Positions 51,432 to 63,174 of a DNA stretch of 64,000 bases are shown one piece after another. How positions within the stretch are numbered: the first letter of the stretch is position 1; each line of letters starts with the position of its first letter. The translations under genes were made by a program, and so were the position numbers. Below the pieces are notes generated by a model, which was given only the letters and a program-made list of their open reading frames with translations, searched no databases and had not been told where the DNA came from. Source of the stretch: an uncultured Candidatus Binatia bacterium (GTDB taxonomy: Bacteria; Desulfobacterota; Binatia; Bin18); contig OZ241744.1 in NCBI GenBank assembly GCA_965200965.1, forward strand, positions 3,264,001 to 3,328,000, in the 5' to 3' direction.

Positions 51432-52442
51432 CTACCACCCATAGCGCTCTTGCTAGTAGGCCGCCCACTCCGAGACCGCCCCGCCACAGTCCCGCCTCAC
51501 GGCCTCAGCAAGCACGGACGGACAGACCCCTGAGAAGGCGTCGTCGGGTCGCCTCAAGGTGGCGCGGACCATGGCCTCAAGCGTTTTCAGCCCGGGAAAT
51601 CGCCTGGTCAGAGGCGGAGAGGTGACTTTCTCCCGATACGCCCAGTTGCCCTCAGGCACGACGCTGACGAGTTTCGCCTCTGAAACGCCGAACTCTTTTT
51701 GCTCAACCATCCGGTCGGCCAGCAGCCGCAGGCGCATGATCTGGTAGAAGGGTTCGTAGAGCAGTTCTTCCATCGGAGCCACGCCGTTGAAGGAGGAAGA
51801 GCCGGCGGAGTAGCGAGCGGCATAGCGCTGTCGCCGCGTCCTGCCCTGATTTCCCTGGCCTTTATCTTCTCTCTGGTATTTCTCCGTGTACTTCCACTCC
51901 AGGAGATAGGCGCGCCGTCTGCCGCCATTGGTCGTGGCGACCGCAAAGGCATCAATGCTGGTCACATTCGCTCCCCGGGTCAGGGCCGCGTCCTCCTCAA
52001 GCGGACGATCGAGGCCGACCCATTCAAACTCGATAGGCGACACGGTGCCCTGGTGGGAGATTGGAGCGATATCGCTGACATCGCTGTCAATGCTCCGAAT
52101 ACCCGCCGCCAGTGCGCCGGGTATGTCAGCCAAAGGAAGCAGAAAGTTCACACATGCAATCTGGGAACTCGCCATGTTGCGGGTCGGCCTCTCCCCCTTG
52201 GAACGGTCGCCGTTCCGGCCGGATTGCCACCAGGGGATGTTGCGGTCTTTGAAAAATCTGACCGCCCCGTCCTCGCCCCGGAGTGGCGGGTAGAGGTTTT
52301 CTTCCTCACACCCCACACTCAGGAGGTAGCCGTATTTCTGCCCGTGAGCATCCGAGGGCGAGCGTCCCTGCTGGCTGACTGTTGCAGAGGTCTGCCGAAA
52401 ATGCGCCTGGCGCTTTTTGGCGATATCTTCGAAGTTTGGCAT
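51432..52442 (-). CDS. Putative PD-(D/E)xK nuclease (PGN_0703-like) with a TAG close to its 3' end
   Basis: SSQ.ACVNFL, EFEW, RG...TS.DA, LLEWKYTE.Y, YQ.MR..LLA. GGAGG RBS. Ends WAAY*QERYGW*. Confidence 0.6.
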
Positions 52443-53163: not shown

Positions 53164-56100
53164 ATGCGGAAAGACACCGATCGCTATTGCTACAGCCCGT
53201 CTGACCTGCTGGAGTTTCTGCATTCGCCGTTTGCGAGCTGGATGACGCGCAGGGGGCTTGACGACCCCCAGGCCGCTCAGCCGGACGCCGAGTCGCCCCA
53301 GCAGTTGATCCTGGCAGAGCACGGCCGCCGCCACGAGCAGGCTTTCCTCAAGCAGCTCCACGACCAGGGCCGCCAAGTGTACAGGGTTCCGCCCGGCGGC
53401 GACCGTGCGCAGCACACCCTGCGCGCCATGCAGGCTGGACACGAGGTGATTTTTCGAGGCGTGCTGGCCCAGGCTGATTATGTCGGGGAAGCCGATTTCC
53501 TGGTCCGGGTTGAAACGCCGTCGCGGCTGGGCGGCTATGCCTACGAGGTGTGGGAGACTAGGCTGGCGCGGGCGGTGCGGCCCGAGTTTCTCATCCAGTT
53601 GTGCGGCTATGCCGAACTGCTTGAGGCGGTCCAGGGCCGCTGTCCTGAGCGGCTCTCCTGCGTGCTGGGCAACGGCCAGGTGTGCGCCTTTCGGACGGCC
53701 GATTATGTGTATTACTACCGGGCGCTGAAAAGCGCCTTTGTCGCCTTCCTGGACGACTTTGCGCCCGGCCGTCCGCCGCCGCCCAACCCGTGGGGCGAGA
53801 ACGGCCGCTGGCAGTCGCACGCCGAGGCGTTGCTTGAAGCCAGCGATCACCTGTGCCGGGTGGCCAACATCAACCAGGCCCAGGTCGAAAAGATCCAGGC
53901 CGCGGGGATATACACCATGCGCGGCCTGGCCGGCACCGACCGGCAGCGTGTGGCGCAAAGGCGAACGATGACTCAGAAGAGCTCATCGTTCGCCTTCCTG
54001 GACGACGCGGTTTTTGCTCGCCTGCGGGAGCAGGCCCGCCTCCAGTTGGCATCTGTCGGTGCCGATACACCGGCCTGCCAGCTTGTGACGCCTGCGGCGG
54101 ACGACCCGCGCCGCGGGTTGGCCCTGCTGCCGCCCGAATCGGCTCTTGATATCTATTGTGACCTGGAGGGCTATCCGCTGATTGAGGGCGGGCTGGAGTA
54201 CCTGTTTGGGGCGAGTGCTCTCGAGCCCGCCACGCCCAGGTTTTTTGACTGGTGGGCCCACAACGCCGAGCAGGAAAAGCGCGCCTTTGAAGCCTTTGTT
54301 GACTGGGCGTTTGCCCGCTGGCAGGCCGACCTAGGCGCGCATATCTACCACTACGGGCACTACGAAGTAACGGCCCTGCGGCGTCTGATGGGCCGCTACG
54401 CGACGCGCGAGGCCGAGGTGGACGCCCTGCTGCGCAACGGTGTTTTTATCGATCTGTACACGATTGTCCGCCAGGGGCTGCGGGTTGGCGAGCCGCGCTA
54501 CTCGCTCAAGAACCTGGAGCGGCTGTTTCGTCCGAAGCGGACCGGAGCAGTCGGCACTGCGCTTGACTCGGTAGTGGCCTATGAACGCTGGCTGGCCAGC
54601 GATGAGCCGCCGGACTGGCGGGCCTCAGCCATGCTGCAAGAGATCAGGGCCTATAATCGGGAAGACTGTGAGTCGGCCCGGCAACTCGCCGGCTGGCTGC
54701 GGGAGCGGCAGCGCGAAGCCGGCATGGTCTGGCTGCCGGCCAGCCCGGGCCGGTCTGAGGAGGGCACACCCGAAGTGCCGGCCCAGCCCAACCCGCGCCA
54801 CGAGTTGGCCGCGCAATTGTTGACCGCCATTCCTGAGCGACGGGAAGAGCGGGCGGGGGACGAGCCGCGCTGGCAGGCCCAGGAGATGCTGGGCCAGGTG
54901 CTGGAGTTTCATCGCCGCGAGGAAAAGCCGATGTGGTGGGCAACCTTTGAACGCCAGGCCATGACCGAGCAGGAACTGATTGAAGACGGTGACTGCCTCG
55001 GCGGGCTGCGCCGCGAGTCTGAGCTGCCCGTTTCCATCAAAAAATCGCTGGGTTTCTGGTACACCTTTGACCCGGACCAGGACACCAAACTGACCGAAGG
55101 CGCGGCCTGCTTTTTTGCTCACGATCTCGATATCACCACCGAAATCCACGCCCTCAACCGGGACGCGGGGCGGGTGTGTCTCAGGTTTGGCCTCCGCAAA
55201 CTCCGGCAGTTCGGCGACGCTCGCCCCCCGGCCCGGCTGTCCCTGATTCCGAATGAGCGCGTCCCAGCCCAGGTGATTGCCGAGGCCATCGAACATACCG
55301 CCCGAAGCTGGCAGGAAGGCCGCCCCCTCTCTCCTGCCCTGGCCGACTTCCTGGCCCGTCGGCCACCCCGTCTGCGCCCGGCCTCCGACCCCGCCGGCGT
55401 GCCCCAGCCCCTCGTCGCTCCCGGCGAAGACCTGTGCGCCGCGGCCGTGCGTCTGGTGTCCGGGCTTGACCATTCCTGTTTGTGCATCCAGGGCCCGCCC
55501 GGGGCCGGTAAAACAACCGTTGCCTCCGCGGCCATTGTATCGCTCCTGGAGCAGGGCAAGCGTGTTGGGATCAGTTCAAACAGTCACGCCGCGATTCTGA
55601 ATCTGCTGGAGAAATGCGGCGAGCTCCACAACGGTCGGCTCGACTGCATCAAGGTCGGCGGTCCGTCGGACGCCCCGTTTTTTGCCCGCTGCCGCGGGGC
55701 GCGCTACGCCCAATCGGTCCGCTACGCCCTGCCCGAGTTGGACAAGGTCGGGCTGATCGGCGGTACGGCCTGGGCCTTCAGCGCCGCGGACATGCGGGAG
55801 CGGCTGGACTACCTGTTTGTTGACGAGGCCGGCCAAGTCTCGGTGGCCAACCTGATCGGCATGGCCCCCTCCAGCAAAAACCTCGTTCTGCTCGGCGACC
55901 AGATGCAGCTCAGTCAGCCGATCCAGGGCTCGCATCCCGGCCACAGCGGTCAGTCGGCTCTCGAATACCTGCTCCAGGGCCGGGCGACCATCCCCGACAG
56001 GCTGGGGCTGTTCCTGGATACCAGTTGGCGGCTCCATCCCGAACTGTGCGGCTTTATTTCCGACACTATGTATGACGGCCGGCTGCGGGCCGCGGCCCAC

Positions 56101-56655
56101 ACCGGCAAGCGGCTTGTCCGCCGGCCGCCAGGCGCAGGCGGGCATATCCGGCGGGAGGCCGGCCTCGTCTTTGTGCCGGTCGTCCATAGCGGCAATACCC
56201 AGGCCAGCGACGAAGAAGTCGCCGTGATCCGGGAGATTGTGCATGAACTGCTAGGCCGGGCGCTGACCGATGAAACAGGCCAGCCCGCCGGAGCGGTCGG
56301 CTGGGACGATATCCTGATTGTTGCCCCGTATAATATGCAGGTGCGTAAGCTCCAGTCGGCCCTGGGGCCGTCGGCCAGGGTGGGTTCGGTCGATAAGTTT
56401 CAGGGCCAGGAAGCCGCGGTGGTGATGGTGTCCATGTGCGCCAGCCACGGCGAGACTTCGCCCCGGGGCATCGAGTTTCTGTTCAGCCGCAACCGTTTGA
56501 ATGTCGCCCTGTCCCGGGCCCGCAGCCTAGCCGTTGTGGTGGCCCATCCAGGCCTGTCGCGGACACCCTGCGCCACCCTGGCCCAGATGGCGGCGGTGAA
56601 TGTCTTCTGTCGGGTGGTGGAGGAGGGCGGAGCAGCGGGAACTGCCGGGGTATGA
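53164..56655 (+). CDS. TM0106-family RecB-like nuclease / RNase H-like / SF1 (DNA2-NAM7-like) helicase fusion
   Basis: SPSDL, G.ADFL..V, QLC.YA; DLEG.P, HIYHY..YE, YSLK.LE, YN.EDC; QGPPGAGKT, VDEAGQ, LGD..QL, VDKFQGQE, NRLNVALSRA. Confidence 0.9.
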   Translation: MRKDTDRYCYSPSDLLEFLHSPFASWMTRRGLDDPQAAQPDAESPQQLILAEHGRRHEQAFLKQLHDQGRQVYRVPPGGDRAQHTLRAMQAGHEVIFRGVLAQADYVGEADFLVRVETPSRLGGYAYEVWETRLARAVRPEFLIQLCGYAELLEAVQGRCPERLSCVLGNGQVCAFRTADYVYYYRALKSAFVAFLDDFAPGRPPPPNPWGENGRWQSHAEALLEASDHLCRVANINQAQVEKIQAAGIYTMRGLAGTDRQRVAQRRTMTQKSSSFAFLDDAVFARLREQARLQLASVGADTPACQLVTPAADDPRRGLALLPPESALDIYCDLEGYPLIEGGLEYLFGASALEPATPRFFDWWAHNAEQEKRAFEAFVDWAFARWQADLGAHIYHYGHYEVTALRRLMGRYATREAEVDALLRNGVFIDLYTIVRQGLRVGEPRYSLKNLERLFRPKRTGAVGTALDSVVAYERWLASDEPPDWRASAMLQEIRAYNREDCESARQLAGWLRERQREAGMVWLPASPGRSEEGTPEVPAQPNPRHELAAQLLTAIPERREERAGDEPRWQAQEMLGQVLEFHRREEKPMWWATFERQAMTEQELIEDGDCLGGLRRESELPVSIKKSLGFWYTFDPDQDTKLTEGAACFFAHDLDITTEIHALNRDAGRVCLRFGLRKLRQFGDARPPARLSLIPNERVPAQVIAEAIEHTARSWQEGRPLSPALADFLARRPPRLRPASDPAGVPQPLVAPGEDLCAAAVRLVSGLDHSCLCIQGPPGAGKTTVASAAIVSLLEQGKRVGISSNSHAAILNLLEKCGELHNGRLDCIKVGGPSDAPFFARCRGARYAQSVRYALPELDKVGLIGGTAWAFSAADMRERLDYLFVDEAGQVSVANLIGMAPSSKNLVLLGDQMQLSQPIQGSHPGHSGQSALEYLLQGRATIPDRLGLFLDTSWRLHPELCGFISDTMYDGRLRAAAHTGKRLVRRPPGAGGHIRREAGLVFVPVVHSGNTQASDEEVAVIREIVHELLGRALTDETGQPAGAVGWDDILIVAPYNMQVRKLQSALGPSARVGSVDKFQGQEAAVVMVSMCASHGETSPRGIEFLFSRNRLNVALSRARSLAVVVAHPGLSRTPCATLAQMAAVNVFCRVVEEGGAAGTAGV
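53958..53996. repeat. 39-bp palindromic element within the helicase CDS
   Basis: AAGGCGAACGATGA / TCATCGTTCGCCTT perfect 14-bp arms. A related copy lies at 21790-21841. Confidence 0.85.
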
Positions 56656-58242: not shown

Positions 58243-58389
58243 GGTCACTCCTTCCTTTCCCCCCTGGTGTTCCAAAGGGTCTGTTCACATATCGGGCCAG
58301 CCTAGCCCAATCGGACCGATCGGACAAGGGACGCCGGCCGGGACACGCGGGCGTTGACTTCATTGCCGGTGTCGCGTTTCATAAGACCC

Positions 58390-58911
58390 ATGCCGGGGTG
58401 TCTGAAAACTGCTGTCCTGCTCCTGGCACTGCTGTGTCCCGTCGGCCTCGGAGCGGTTGAGACCGCCCCGCGCATCTCAGACCGGGAGATCGTTGAGCGG
58501 CTGACCAGGCTGGAAGCGGGGCAAGGCCACTTGGCGAGCAAAATTGAGGCGAACACCGCGGCCACTGACCAGTTGCGGACGGGTATGCAGATGCAGATTC
58601 AGCAGTTGCGGACGGATATGCAGACGCAGATTCAGCAGTTGCGGACGGATATGAATGCTCAGTTTGATCGGCTTTCGCAACTCATGCTGGGGATTGTTGG
58701 CGCGTTTGCCGCGCTTGTGGCGGCGACGCTTGGGTTTGCGCTGTGGGACCGGCGGACGCTCGTGCGGCCCCTTGAGGGCAAGGTGCAAGCGGTCGAAGAG
58801 GAGTTGGCCCACAACCGCGCACATCTGCACTCCCTGCTGGAAGCCTTCCGCTCGCTGGGGCGTCAGGATGAGAAGGTAGCCGCGGTGCTGCGGCAATTCC
58901 GGCTGTTGTAG
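58390..58911 (+). CDS. Coiled-coil membrane protein with 11-residue repeats
   Basis: Signal peptide, EIVERLTRLE, QLRTDMQTQIQ repeats, TM helix ending WDRRT. Confidence 0.75.
   Translation: MPGCLKTAVLLLALLCPVGLGAVETAPRISDREIVERLTRLEAGQGHLASKIEANTAATDQLRTGMQMQIQQLRTDMQTQIQQLRTDMNAQFDRLSQLMLGIVGAFAALVAATLGFALWDRRTLVRPLEGKVQAVEEELAHNRAHLHSLLEAFRSLGRQDEKVAAVLRQFRLL
58570..58653 (+). repeat. 33-bp tandem repeat, about 2.5 copies
   Basis: CAGTTGCGGACGG[G/A]TATGCAGA[T/C]GCAGATTCAG at 58570 and 58603, partial copy at 58636. Confidence 0.92.
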
Positions 58912-58933: not shown

Positions 58934-59878
58934 TCAGCTTGTGTCACTTGTACCTTGGACTGAAAAAGGCTCACCATCGCGGTCATAGGCAAAGTCCGGT
59001 CCGGCGTAGTCATTCCAGCGGCGGTTATAGGGACCGGCTTCGAAGCGTGAAACGTCGTCGGTCGTGCCTGGGTCTCCCTCGTCAAGCCCGTGGCCGAATT
59101 CCACGCCACCAAGGTTGGTCAGGATGTAGCGATTGTGCATCTTGTCGCCATCCTCACGGTTTTTCCAACGATGTACGGTGAGTGTCGCTCCTGCGGGAAG
59201 AATAGGAGGGAGCTTAGCCCTGCATTCTTTCTGAAACTTCTCCCAAATCGGCGCACCATCGCGATCGGCCGTATGGAGTTCGATTGTGAGATCTGAGGCT
59301 CGGGTCCCGATGATCCTGACAAATGCGGCCAGAGGTTTCCTGAATCTCTCTTCGGTAGCGCGGAAGTGCGGGTCTACAAACAGTACTTTTGTTGCGCAAC
59401 GCAGCATCGGCGCAACGCATTCTGCCATTGCTTCCGCGGTCCGTTTGACGGTTCTTGTACCCGGGGTGTTCCAGAGTTCAGGCGTTCCATCTACGATGGC
59501 GTCTTCAAGTATGATGTTTGTGTTTCTGCGTGGGTTGTCGCGGGCCAGGATTGCGTGAAAGGGTTTGCGGGTGTGTTCATTCTCCGCGTTGGTGAGCCAG
59601 CCGAGGGAGTCGTCCCAGATATATCCCGGACGCTTAACCACGGGCATAGTCAACTGTTTTACCAATTCTTCTATCCGTCCCCGTGCCGTTTCTTTTTTGC
59701 TGGGGGGGCCGCTGAAGGTGTCATCAAAAGCTTCCCAAACCAGTCTTTTCCATTTCTTGGGGTAACGTGAGACAACTTTTCCCTTGTCAGAACCAAACTG
59801 GCTAATAAAAAATCTTCCCTTTAGGCGATCATGCCAGGACGCGACAAGTTCAGGCTCTAGCGCATATTCGTGAATCAT
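58934..59878 (-). CDS. Hypothetical protein with C-terminal PLD-like (MIT_C-type) domain, putative nuclease effector
   Basis: VLFVDPHF...MHNRYILT..GG..FGHGLD pattern. Starts 2 nt after the ATPase stop. Confidence 0.65.
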   Translation of the reverse strand: MIHEYALEPELVASWHDRLKGRFFISQFGSDKGKVVSRYPKKWKRLVWEAFDDTFSGPPSKKETARGRIEELVKQLTMPVVKRPGYIWDDSLGWLTNAENEHTRKPFHAILARDNPRRNTNIILEDAIVDGTPELWNTPGTRTVKRTAEAMAECVAPMLRCATKVLFVDPHFRATEERFRKPLAAFVRIIGTRASDLTIELHTADRDGAPIWEKFQKECRAKLPPILPAGATLTVHRWKNREDGDKMHNRYILTNLGGVEFGHGLDEGDPGTTDDVSRFEAGPYNRRWNDYAGPDFAYDRDGEPFSVQGTSDTS

Positions 59879-59880
59879 TG

Positions 59881-61482
59881 TCAGAATAATTCCTTCGCTC
59901 GTTCCGGAAAGAAGCCTTGTGGCCAGGGACGGTCGAATTCACCGTCTTCGGTTACGGGAATCTCAATGACCCGTGCCCCCTTCTCGCCAGGCTCGACGTA
60001 CAGGACGGCGACATCCTCCGGGCGGATGCCCGGGAAGCCGTCGGGCAACTCGTCTTCCGTTGTTTCGCGTATCCGTCGCAGGATGCGGAGCAGCAGGTGC
60101 TCGCTATGCGTCTCCAGCAGGAAGGTGTTGCCCCGCTTCAGGAAGAGGTCGCCCCGCTTCTTGGCGGACCGGATGAACAGGTCGCCGAGTTCGGCCTGAT
60201 GGGCGGGGTGAAGGTGGATTTCGGGCTGTTCAATCAAGAGTGTCTTCGCTTCACAGAGCTCAGCCTGTGCCACGATGGGCAGCACTTGGCTGATACCGAA
60301 GCCGACATCCCGCAGGCTGACATCTACGTCGATATTCTTGTCGGTAAGGCGTAGAGAAAAGACGTTGCTGGGGCTTGCGTCTTCTTCGTGTTGCAGTTTG
60401 GAAACTTTCAGGGTGTATTGCACGCCGAGACCTTTCAGGTCGGCGTTGATTTTCTCCACTAGATCGGGGTTCTCAAAGAGAATGGAAGGCAGAAGCTCGC
60501 CTGACTGTCCGACATACTCAGTCGTGTCGCCGCTGTATTCGTAGACACGTTTTGGCGGATTCCGCAGAGGCCCTAGATATATCAAACTTTCCAGGTTTGC
60601 GCGGAACCTTGAAAGAATTCGGTTGCGCGGGAGACTCATCCATGTGCCCATTAGATTGGACAGATCGGAGCTTGAGAAATCTATTCTCTCAGAAGAGTGT
60701 TCGGGTAGAAAATTCTGATAGGTAGGGATGTCTAGCTGGTGTATTTCCTCTGCACCCCTTTGAAGAGCGTCTTCAAGCTCGCTGCAAAGGGCCTCTTTAA
60801 TTTTAGAACGTTCGATAGTCCGCAACCTCTCCTTTATTTGATTGCTTTCGAGGCCAGGAATGATATGCCCGCCATCAGAGTTTTTTGACAGCAGAAAAGC
60901 GAGATCTCTGTATTCGGGATCATTACCAGTATAGCAAGAATGAAGGGCGTTCCACCAGCGCCCCCAGAATTCCAATTTGGATTTGGAAGAGAACCGAACC
61001 GTCTCCATGACATGTTGCGTATCATATCCGAGCCCCCAGCCAGGAGCCGCAATTTCCAGGATCTTTTGCGCATCATCTCCGACATTCAGAGCTAGAGCGA
61101 CAGCCCAGGGATCCGCTAGCGCCAGAGCTTCTTTTGAATAGGTGAATAGGACTCCTAGAGCGGCTTCCCGTATCGTCTCGTCAGGAGACAGGAAGAGAGG
61201 TATCTCCAGATCAAACCGTGCCCAAAACTCAAAATCCCGCTCTGTCTCATGCCGATGCACGAAATCCTTATATGACCCCAAATCAACCAGCGAGCCTTTG
61301 GGAAGCAGGGCGGTGTGGGGGTTTTTCGCCTCCTCAAGCGTCTGCTTCAGGAGCAGGAGCGATTGGAAGATGGAGCTTTTGCCGGACGAGTTGGCCCCAA
61401 AGATGAGGGTAAGCGGACGGATCGGAATCGCGACTGTCTCGCCAAACGCCTTGAAATTGGTAAGCTGGTATTCGCGTAGCAT
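59881..61482 (-). CDS. ABC-type (AAA_15/AAA_21) ATPase with DUF3696 C-terminus
   Basis: NFKAF, GANSSGKSS, YLGPLR, DVGFGISQVLP, IEQPEIHLHP, ETHSEH, GEFDRPWP.GFF. GGGGAGG RBS. Confidence 0.88.
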   Translation of the reverse strand: MLREYQLTNFKAFGETVAIPIRPLTLIFGANSSGKSSIFQSLLLLKQTLEEAKNPHTALLPKGSLVDLGSYKDFVHRHETERDFEFWARFDLEIPLFLSPDETIREAALGVLFTYSKEALALADPWAVALALNVGDDAQKILEIAAPGWGLGYDTQHVMETVRFSSKSKLEFWGRWWNALHSCYTGNDPEYRDLAFLLSKNSDGGHIIPGLESNQIKERLRTIERSKIKEALCSELEDALQRGAEEIHQLDIPTYQNFLPEHSSERIDFSSSDLSNLMGTWMSLPRNRILSRFRANLESLIYLGPLRNPPKRVYEYSGDTTEYVGQSGELLPSILFENPDLVEKINADLKGLGVQYTLKVSKLQHEEDASPSNVFSLRLTDKNIDVDVSLRDVGFGISQVLPIVAQAELCEAKTLLIEQPEIHLHPAHQAELGDLFIRSAKKRGDLFLKRGNTFLLETHSEHLLLRILRRIRETTEDELPDGFPGIRPEDVAVLYVEPGEKGARVIEIPVTEDGEFDRPWPQGFFPERAKELF

Positions 61483-61514
61483 GTTCGTCCTCCCCTTGCT
61501 GCCCTTGGGAATAA

Positions 61515-61530
61515 TGCAAGGTGCGTGCCA
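61515..61530 (-). promoter_or_regulatory. Sigma54 (-24/-12) promoter of the ATPase operon
   Basis: Minus strand reads TGGCACG-CACC-TTGCA, matching TGGCACG-N4-TTGCW, 32 nt upstream of the ATG. Confidence 0.85.
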
Positions 61531-61606
61531 CTTGTGCCAAACAGGGCTACTATACACAAATCAGCGCCGTTTCGCTACCAAACCCCCTTCCCTCTCCCCT
61601 GGAGAG

Positions 61607-61639
61607 AGAAGAAATGTTGCAATTCACAAGAAATCTTGT
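61607..61639. promoter_or_regulatory. Putative upstream activator / autoregulatory sites
   Basis: Palindrome ACAAGA-AA-TCTTGT (61626-61639) plus degenerate copy AGAAGAAATGTTGC (61607-61620). Confidence 0.5.
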
Positions 61640-61650
61640 ATGAACAAGGC

Positions 61651-63174
61651 ATGAGCGGATGTGTCCTTGTCGCCTGGCTGGGCAATACCGACCTGCGCGT
61701 CTCCGGCGGTGAGTTGGGGGACGCATTGGGGCCGATTGGACAGGCGGCGCGTACCTTGGACTTGGAGGCGGTCCATCTGCTCAGCGACCATAAGCCCCGA
61801 CAGTCGCAGCGCTATCGGGCGTGGCTGAGTGAACGCCTGGGGATAGAAGCCAGCCTGCACCCGGCCCGGCTGAGCAGCCCCACCCGCTTTGATGAAATAT
61901 ACGAGGCCGCGGTTGCGGTGCTTGACACGCTCGGCGCTGGAAACGGCGCTCCGCGCCTGGTCTACCATCTCAGCCCGGGCACGCCGGCAATGGCCGCGGT
62001 GTGGATTGTGCTGGCCAAGACCAGCCACCCGGCTGAACTGATAGAATCATCCGTAGAAGACGGCGTGCGCACGGTGTCGTTTCCGTTCGAGATTGCCGCG
62101 GAATATCTGCCGGGCAGCACGGGCCCGAGCGATGACCGGATTGTACGCCTCACCCAAGGGCTGCCCCAACACGCCCCCGAGTTCGGGGCGATCATCCATC
62201 GCTGTGAGGCCATGAAAACCGAGATTGCCCGGGCCAGACGGCTGGCCGTCCATAATGTTCCGGTGCTGATTCAGGGCGAGTCAGGAACCGGCAAAGAGCT
62301 GTTTGCCCGCGCCATTCATGCGTCCAGCCCCAGGGCCGGCGGACCGTTCCTTGAGGTCAACTGCGGGGCCATTCCGGGCGAGCTGCTTGAAGCCGAGTTC
62401 TTTGGCAGCACCAGAGGGGCGTTTACCGGGGCCGAGGCCAAGGCCGGCTATCTTGAAGCGGCCCACACCGGCAGCCTGTTTCTGGATGAGATCGGCGAGC
62501 TGCCGCTGACCGCCCAGGTCAAACTCCTGCGCTGCCTCCAGGAAGGCACGGTCCAGCGCCTCGGCTCGACTCAGCCCAGAAACATTGACATTCGGGTGAT
62601 CGCCGCCACCAACCGCGACCTGCACGAAGAAGTCGCCGGCCAGAAATTCCGGGAGGACCTGTTCCACCGACTGGCGGTTGGCGTGCTGCGCCTGCCGTCG
62701 CTGCGCGAGCGGACCGGCGACCTTGGTCTGCTGATCGATCATGTCCTGGAACGCATCAATGCCGAGTGTGGGCGACAGCCCGGCTGGGTGGAGAAGACGC
62801 TTGCCGTTGAGGCGCGCAATCTGCTGCTCCAACACCCCTGGCCGGGCAATGTGCGGGAACTGTCCAACACCCTGTCGCGGGCTGCTATCTGGACGGTCGA
62901 GCCCAGCATTGACGCCCACGACATTCGGGCGGCCCTGTTCCCGGCCAGAAAAGACGCCCGGGCTGCTGACCCGGTGCTGAACCGCAGTCTGGGAGACGGC
63001 TTTGCGCTGCCTGGCCTGCTGGCCGATGTGGCCCGGCACTACCTGAGCCGGGCGCTGGCCGAGACCGGGGGCAACAAGTCGGCAGCGTGCAGGCTCGTCG
63101 GCCTCCCCAACTCCCAGACCTTCACCAACTGGCTGAAAAAATATGGGGTCGGGAGAGCGCCGCGCTTGGGATAA
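61651..63174 (+). CDS. Sigma54-dependent activator with N-terminal CARF/RtcR-like domain
   Basis: N-terminal VAWLGNTDL...SPT.F..IY...HLSPGTPAM. AAA+ GESGTGKE, GAFTGA, FLDEIGE, FREDL..RL, WPGNVREL. Fis-type HTH. Confidence 0.88.
   Translation: MSGCVLVAWLGNTDLRVSGGELGDALGPIGQAARTLDLEAVHLLSDHKPRQSQRYRAWLSERLGIEASLHPARLSSPTRFDEIYEAAVAVLDTLGAGNGAPRLVYHLSPGTPAMAAVWIVLAKTSHPAELIESSVEDGVRTVSFPFEIAAEYLPGSTGPSDDRIVRLTQGLPQHAPEFGAIIHRCEAMKTEIARARRLAVHNVPVLIQGESGTGKELFARAIHASSPRAGGPFLEVNCGAIPGELLEAEFFGSTRGAFTGAEAKAGYLEAAHTGSLFLDEIGELPLTAQVKLLRCLQEGTVQRLGSTQPRNIDIRVIAATNRDLHEEVAGQKFREDLFHRLAVGVLRLPSLRERTGDLGLLIDHVLERINAECGRQPGWVEKTLAVEARNLLLQHPWPGNVRELSNTLSRAAIWTVEPSIDAHDIRAALFPARKDARAADPVLNRSLGDGFALPGLLADVARHYLSRALAETGGNKSAACRLVGLPNSQTFTNWLKKYGVGRAPRLG

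Follow-up and report, generated by a model that had tools for sequence, protein, structure and literature searches.

A divergent CARF sigma-54 activator and a Menshen-like ATPase-effector pair in an uncultured Candidatus Binatia bacterium: a candidate inducible anti-phage module

Several anti-phage systems, among them PARIS, Septu, Gabija and PrrC, combine an ABC ATPase sensor with a nuclease and often back up restriction (PMC11464382, PMC12065111; here and below, statements about cited papers refer to parts of their text). In PARIS, sensing by the ATPase AriA leads to release of the nuclease AriB (PMC11464382). In Menshen, the ATPase NsnB is predicted to clamp the effector NsnC with its DUF3696 tails, the NsnC position is mostly occupied by nucleases, and one effector type, PB-PLD1, stands behind an inactive PIN domain (Li et al. 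2025, PMC12065111). That study gathered its loci through the DUF262 protein NsnA, and pairs lacking NsnA lay outside its search. HEC-03, an ATPase with a PIN protein, needs both of its genes for defence and protects without NsnA (Payne et al. 2024, 10.1101/2024.01.29.577857). Here we describe a locus of about 4.2 kb, lying in a stretch of 64,000 nucleotides (hereafter the window; contig OZ241744.1, positions 3,264,001 to 3,328,000, assembly GCA_965200965.1) of the 3.62 Mb genome of an uncultured Candidatus Binatia bacterium, in which a CARF-type activator of sigma-54 transcription faces an operon of a Menshen-like ABC ATPase and a two-domain effector with a predicted phospholipase D (PLD) fold.

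RtcR-like proteins that are unlinked to Rtc genes and often stand beside restriction-modification (R-M) systems were reported in 2014, together with the proposal that phage nucleotides, or RNA ends with a cyclic phosphate, are the signals on which they activate sigma-54 transcription (Makarova et al. 2014, PMC4012209). Supplementary File 4 of that paper holds, as a table entry only, the series activator, hsdR, hsdM, hsdS and DUF3696 ATPase in Desulfobacterium autotrophicum, and the CARF/sigma-54 idea was repeated for defence superoperons in the CoCoNuT paper (Bell et al. 2024, PMC11090510). The original prediction for our locus, made from the sequence alone, offered CARF/sigma-54 control of an anti-phage effector instead of rtcBA as a new scheme; its newness was overstated. 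The same prediction took the combination to be undescribed, and our literature search, short of two key supplements or papers, turned up no publication that names either pair or trio, but the parts are published, as activator-hsdRMS-DUF3696 (PMC4012209) and as the NsnC variant (PMC12065111). In contrast to the operons of PMC4012209 and PMC11090510, the activator here is divergent and its cargo is only the ATPase-PLD pair; the covered parts of both papers name neither such a cargo, nor the promoter sequence, nor a binding site. We consider it probable, on balance, that the locus is an inducible two-step anti-phage module, in which the CARF activator controls a sigma-54 operon of the ATPase and a predicted PLD nuclease. 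The parts of such a module are known, and for their arrangement we found no paper that describes or tests it.

The activator (window positions 61651-63174, plus strand, 507 amino acids (aa)) comprises a CARF domain at residues ~1-155, with the motifs WLGNTD at 9 and HLSPGTPAM at 106, an AAA+ domain at 181-437, with a Walker A (GESGTGKE) at 209 and GAFTGA at 256, and a Fis-type helix-turn-helix (HTH) at ~457-499. Across a gap of 168 bp, the minus strand encodes an NsnB-like ABC ATPase with a DUF3696 tail (61482-59881, 533 aa; Walker A at 29, GFG signature at 394, Walker B LLIEQPE at 415, H-loop at 456). An NsnC-like two-domain effector follows (59878-58934, minus strand, 314 aa), its ATG 2 nt past the ATPase stop, with an alpha/beta N-domain (~1-138) and a C-domain of PLD/MIT_C fold (~139-314) that carries DPHF at 169, HNRYILT at 248 and GHGLD at 262. 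All three reading frames are open and intact, and the divergon agrees in coordinates, frames and motifs with its first description, as does the claim that the operon is AT-richer: at 53.6% GC it falls in the 2nd percentile of the genome's 2.55-kb windows, the genome as a whole having 61.5% and the activator 65.3%. The layout is divergent, as it is for RtcR at rtcBA.

The operon is preceded by a consensus sigma-54 -24/-12 promoter, TGGCACG-CACC-TTGCA, at 61530-61515 on the minus strand, which matches the consensus at 12 of 12 positions with 0 mismatches, as had been claimed for it. The genome encodes RpoN (rpoN). TGGCACG-N4-TTGCW has a single strict match in the 3.62 Mb, where base composition leads one to expect about one (an estimate); the site derives its weight from its location in the 168-bp gap, on the right strand and 33 nt before the ATPase ATG. 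Among 48 related loci chosen for having an activator, 38 carry a site of at least 10/12 downstream of it, compared with 1.5% of control windows, and in two of the ten misses the site is present slightly further on. The site is also kept in all 6 other divergent loci that were aligned. Two loci, L005 and L006, retain a sigma-54 site (11/12) ~60 bp before the ATPase, although their assemblies, each a single chromosome, yielded no PspF2 activator.

The palindrome ACAAGA-NN-TCTTGT (61626-61639, strand not assigned), ~100 bp away from the -24 box, is a candidate activator binding site. The genome has no other copy free of mismatches; a second, weaker one may be present at ~61607-61620. Members of the divergent clade, those with a name being Candidatus Binatia, conserve promoter and palindrome but differ in the spacer between them. 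When up to 2 mismatches are allowed, 20 of 56 activator loci have the palindrome 14-34 nt ahead of the activator start (12 of 48 once the clade from which the motif was derived is set aside), and the genome as a whole has 52 sites at that tolerance. Its position makes the palindrome a candidate autoregulatory operator that would double as an enhancer in the divergent layout, and binding is inferred from sequence. TTGCAA and TATGAA flank it (window 61616-61653), with the activator ATG 6 nt later and no clear ribosome-binding site, and the activator transcript may be leaderless, autorepressed and sigma-70 dependent.

The activator belongs, by its match to the PADLOC model RtcR_PspF2 (E 2e-181 across residues 5-500), to the same family as the RtcR_PspF2 or 'PspF-like' activators, which are unlinked to rtcBA and predicted to activate defence genes through sigma-54. 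An NtrC-like AAA+ domain with GAFTGA and a C-terminal HTH are present as in that family, and Pfam matches are Sigma54_activat and HTH_8. The expectation that the N-domain would prove CARF-like was borne out by a CARF4 match (E 2e-10) and by the relatives in its alignment, 15 of 23 of which match RtcR PF06956 and 8 of 23 Csm6 CARF; no solved structure was matched by sequence. Judged by these profiles, the N-domain is a CARF domain. The protein has the CARF-AAA+-HTH architecture and the sigma-54 promoter in common with RtcR of the rtcBA operon (Hughes et al. 2020, PMC7790460). Unlike RtcR of rtcBA, it scores 314 bits against an NCBIfam RtcR equivalog cut-off of 650, its cargo is a predicted effector, and the genome (one genome, 99.3% complete) contains no RtcB, in keeping with the earlier remark that RNA-repair genes are missing; an RNA-repair RtcR was rejected on the score and on RtcB. 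The placing of defence genes, not rtcBA, behind a sigma-54 promoter is an RtcR_PspF2 trait that is found at this locus.

The choice of Menshen as the closest system is upheld by the ATPase, which matches NsnB best (E 6e-55), followed by PDC-M55A and the HEC-03 ATPase model (both 2e-50), and has Pfam matches to AAA_15, AAA_21 and, as had been noted, DUF3696 (E 6e-6). It shares with NsnB the ABC ATPase core, the DUF3696 tail, the GxG signature and an arginine at the Q-loop position; G394, G396 and R307 (the Q-loop position) are invariant in 39 ATPases. The effector is likewise, as is NsnC in its variant of inactive PIN plus PB-PLD1, a two-domain protein of ~310 aa right after the ATPase with an MIT_C/PLD-like C-domain and the same D and HxR residues, which answer to the acidic residue after strand 2 and the HDR-type motif of PB-PLD1; a frequent link to type I R-M is also common to both (PMC12065111). 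Unlike Menshen, the locus has a CARF sigma-54 activator at its head, a Walker B with EQ rather than EN, an ATPase of 533 aa as opposed to 401 aa for this genome's true NsnB, the difference lying in a hypervariable insert, and no NsnA. As had been said of the locus, the window is free of DUF262 genes, of which the rest of the genome has six, and the NsnA query gave 0 matches in 79 related loci; the trio is not a Menshen member because NsnA is absent from both. GmrSD-type DUF262 matches occur in 5 of these loci besides one query's own, none directly upstream, and none of the upstream genes scanned is DUF262. A complete Menshen stands elsewhere in the genome (L109, G000:C1 ~248,400-251,700), with a DUF262 NsnA, NsnB (E 1e-104) and NsnC (E 2e-113).

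HEC-03 has two genes, a related ATPase (E 2e-50) and no NsnA in common with our pair, whereas its effector is a small VapC-like PIN and ours a 314-aa PLD-fold protein (10.1101/2024.01.29.577857); identity with HEC-03 was rejected as the effector has no PADLOC match to the VapC-like PIN model. PARIS, Septu, Gabija and PrrC differ in their TOPRIM, HNH or HEPN effectors and in a much weaker ATPase similarity (AriA E 4e-25, GajA E 1e-9), and PARIS, Septu and Gabija were set aside on the partner, a PLD fold and not a TOPRIM, HNH or helicase protein. By analogy, the pair would work like an NsnA-less Menshen- or PARIS-type ATPase-nuclease pair placed under the previously predicted CARF/sigma-54 switch. 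Two further ATPase and PIN-like pairs occur in the genome: one (L110:2086-3947) has a PIN protein similar to HEC-03A (E 4e-39) and adjoins DUF4276 and DUF1156 genes, and the other (L111:2679-4425) is preceded by a DNA methylase.

The effector itself has no PADLOC match and belongs to no named family, yet it is widespread, with 365 close relatives and, at E values up to 1e-10, 2,032 clusters. Its C-terminus had been suspected to be of PLD/MIT_C type, and a Foldseek search with the AlphaFold2 model (predicted local distance difference test score 96) returned MITD1 as the best match (E 1.4e-5), then PLDs and Nuc, with FAM83/PLD lipases also near the top. On this model the effector is predicted to be a nuclease of PLD fold. 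Members of its family match BrxL (12 of 148) and NsnC (3 of 148) weakly in the PLD region. With MITD1 and lipases among the top matches as well as Nuc, and a non-canonical HxR motif, the domain could instead act on lipids or other phosphodiesters, or only bind, as MITD1 may. We regard this as very unlikely given the near-invariance of H248 (147 of 148 relatives), R250 (148 of 148) and D169 (144 of 148), the description of BrxL, with the same HxR variant, as a likely active endoDNase (PMC12839542), and the predominance of nucleases in the NsnC position. The N-domain is possibly an inactive PIN.

We compared loci from many phyla, in 77 genomes with the effector and 80 primary effector loci. In 76 of 79 loci the effector has the ATPase immediately ahead of it; of the other three, one is interrupted by an insertion sequence, one lies at a contig edge and one is a lone gene. 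The gap between the two genes, determined for 38 full pairs, is always -4 to +3 nt. At a cut-off of > 500 bits, a PspF2 activator is present in 54 of the 77 genomes; 44 of 55 activator genes lie no more than 15 kb upstream of an effector copy, and 42 of the 80 primary loci have an activator within 15 kb (34 co-directional, 8 divergent). Among 400 unselected Pseudomonadota genomes, 11 have the activator, 9 the effector and 6 both, where 0.25 would be expected (p 7e-9, with 3-5 candidates scored per genome and kin not independent). The 40 relatives of this genome, a set that overlaps the 77, contain 6 activators, all near an effector, and 5 genomes with the effector only. The genes thus co-occur widely, as the original prediction would have it, but the activator is not dedicated to the pair: the two are adjacent on one contig in 3 of the 11 unselected activator genomes (2 more break at contig ends), and other activators of that sample head MoxR-vWA, OLD-TOPRIM with UvrD, or GmrSD. 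By these co-occurrence and cargo counts, the ATPase-effector pair is the fixed unit; the activator is a portable switch that favours this pair among its cargoes.

HsdS lies directly upstream of the pair in 25 of 79 loci, and 23 of 48 activator loci have the order activator-hsdR-hsdM-hsdS-ATPase; the locus described here is a restriction-free, divergent minimal form of this widespread activator-hsdRMS-ATPase-effector operon. The pair might accordingly not be self-sufficient, serving as a guard or accessory of type I R-M, as PrrC does, or borrowing NsnA in trans, and the trio would then be a reduced and possibly decaying remnant. The genome does hold several type I hsd loci besides its complete three-gene Menshen, which could act in trans, and the module often decays in close kin, being deleted with scars in one genome (G484) and broken by stops or splits in three (G501, G479, G480). 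We find this unlikely all the same, since 16 of 80 loci, from at least five phyla as judged from record titles, have a restriction-free trio, the activator being no more than 2.5 kb from the effector, which leaves restriction genes no space. On a quick effector tree the layouts are intermingled, with 8 changes for 14 R-M rows, the NsnA query found nothing in the 79 loci, frames and motifs are intact here, and the indels of a second strain add up to whole codons. A NACHT/STAND-like NTPase of 1,500 aa, with HEAT repeats, separates hsdS from the pair in three loci (L015, L017, L021).

A long hypervariable insert occupies ATPase residues ~96-300, as delimited by the conservation profile and by strain differences. 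Insert 1 is 17-21% identical to that of four close relatives, against 73-87% for the ATPase core, a contrast in which multiple alignment may understate the insert's identity. In a strain from a second study, 5.2% of bases are different between 60181 and 61660, against 0.7% in the flanks; its contigs have 77 substitutions in 1,480 bp of ATPase and promoter and 35 in 5,023 bp of flanks, effector and activator, and its indels preserve the frame, summing to whole codons. The listed differences fall at codon positions 1-2 in 24 of 27 cases in insert 1 and 8 of 20 in the core (p 0.0006), a signal that comes from one study, omits ~10 differences absent from the listing and takes codon position as a proxy for selection. 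Run X1, which may be the source sample, matches the window without differences. Diverged ATPase-effector pairs also occur in tandem, two or three behind one activator. Five Latescibacterota loci (L031, L032, L008, L011, L014) have two or three tandem pairs, four of the five with one activator ahead, and two effectors within one array are only 27% identical. Inserts have been proposed to set trigger specificity in defence ATPases (Payne et al. 2024, 10.1101/2024.01.29.577857), and the insert here is a candidate sensor or specificity region, varying as expected of a sensor.

The same variation bears on whether the trio responds to phage at all. RtcR is induced by DNA damage and tRNA breakage (PMC7790460), the ATPase matches AAA_21/AbiEii-type models, and no integrase or tRNA flanks the trio, all of which would suit a stress or anti-plasmid switch, similar to a toxin-antitoxin system, that is induced by RNA or DNA damage through CARF and arrests growth with no phage-specific trigger. 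Such a switch seems quite unlikely to us, since the hypervariable insert and the tandem diverged pairs fit an arms race and the neighbours that recur at related loci are defence genes (type I R-M, GmrSD, OLD/TOPRIM, Schlafen, AbiTii).

As an anti-phage module, the locus could operate in the following way. The activator would sit on the palindrome at 61626-61639 and, upon binding its ligand, perhaps an RNA end with a 2',3'-cyclic phosphate by analogy with RtcR, would oligomerise and open the sigma-54 promoter. The ATPase would hold the effector through its DUF3696 tails, as predicted for NsnB-NsnC and shown for AriA-AriB. Its insert, replacing NsnA, would recognise a phage product, plausibly an anti-restriction protein because the pair is usually located behind hsdRMS. 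The released effector would dimerise, since single-motif PLD nucleases such as Nuc act as dimers, and cut nucleic acid, leading to abortive infection. The fullest version, a self-contained three-gene, two-key circuit in which an RNA-damage CARF/sigma-54 switch arms an NsnA-independent ATPase whose fast-evolving insert is the phage receptor and which unleashes an MIT_C-type nuclease, is a tentative proposal that we hold to be possible rather than probable.

Several observations count against an inducible anti-phage module, besides the decay in close kin, the systems that could act in trans, the missing RtcB and the single-study origin of the strain signal. The effector motif is HxR(x)4N, not HxK(x)4D (D or E is found at that position in 120 of 148 relatives), profile comparisons gave no support for an inactive PIN in the N-domain, and MITD1-type domains are without proven activity (PMC12065111). 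A sigma-70-like site (9/12) overlaps the sigma-54 site, and basal expression is therefore possible. The pair occurs in 23 of 77 genomes without a PspF2 activator (500-bit cut-off, many genomes incomplete), and induction by that activator is therefore not obligatory. We found no experiments on any module member in the literature.

Three further genes of the window lie near the trio. A REase-ARP/PD-(D/E)XK nuclease (51453-52439, minus strand) and a 1,163-aa SF1 helicase-like protein (53164-56655, plus strand; MkoA model E 3e-42, C-terminal part only) lie 2-7 kb away and possibly form a loose defence neighbourhood with it. The third (58354-58911, plus strand) encodes a 185-aa protein that contains an internal repeat and matches no Pfam family. 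At the same site G484 (L123) has about five copies of it in tandem, and there the trio is reduced to ATPase scars and an intact sigma-54 site.

Two published predictions for which our searches show no test meet at this locus: that RtcR-like CARF activators induce defence operons through sigma-54 (2014, 2024), and that MIT_C-type PLD domains, as in Menshen, BrxL and human MITD1, are enzymes (2025). The 4.2-kb locus presents both in the most compact form: its promoter is perfect, it offers a candidate binding site, and assays would not be confounded by restriction genes. Natural variation suggests that specificity resides in the ATPase insert. With this locus, Menshen-like systems gain a branch that lacks NsnA, but it defines no new kind of mechanism. 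If the fullest version of our reading is true, the trio would offer a minimal setting in which to identify the ligand of the PspF2 CARF family and to show that PLD domains of the MITD1/BrxL type are enzymatically active.

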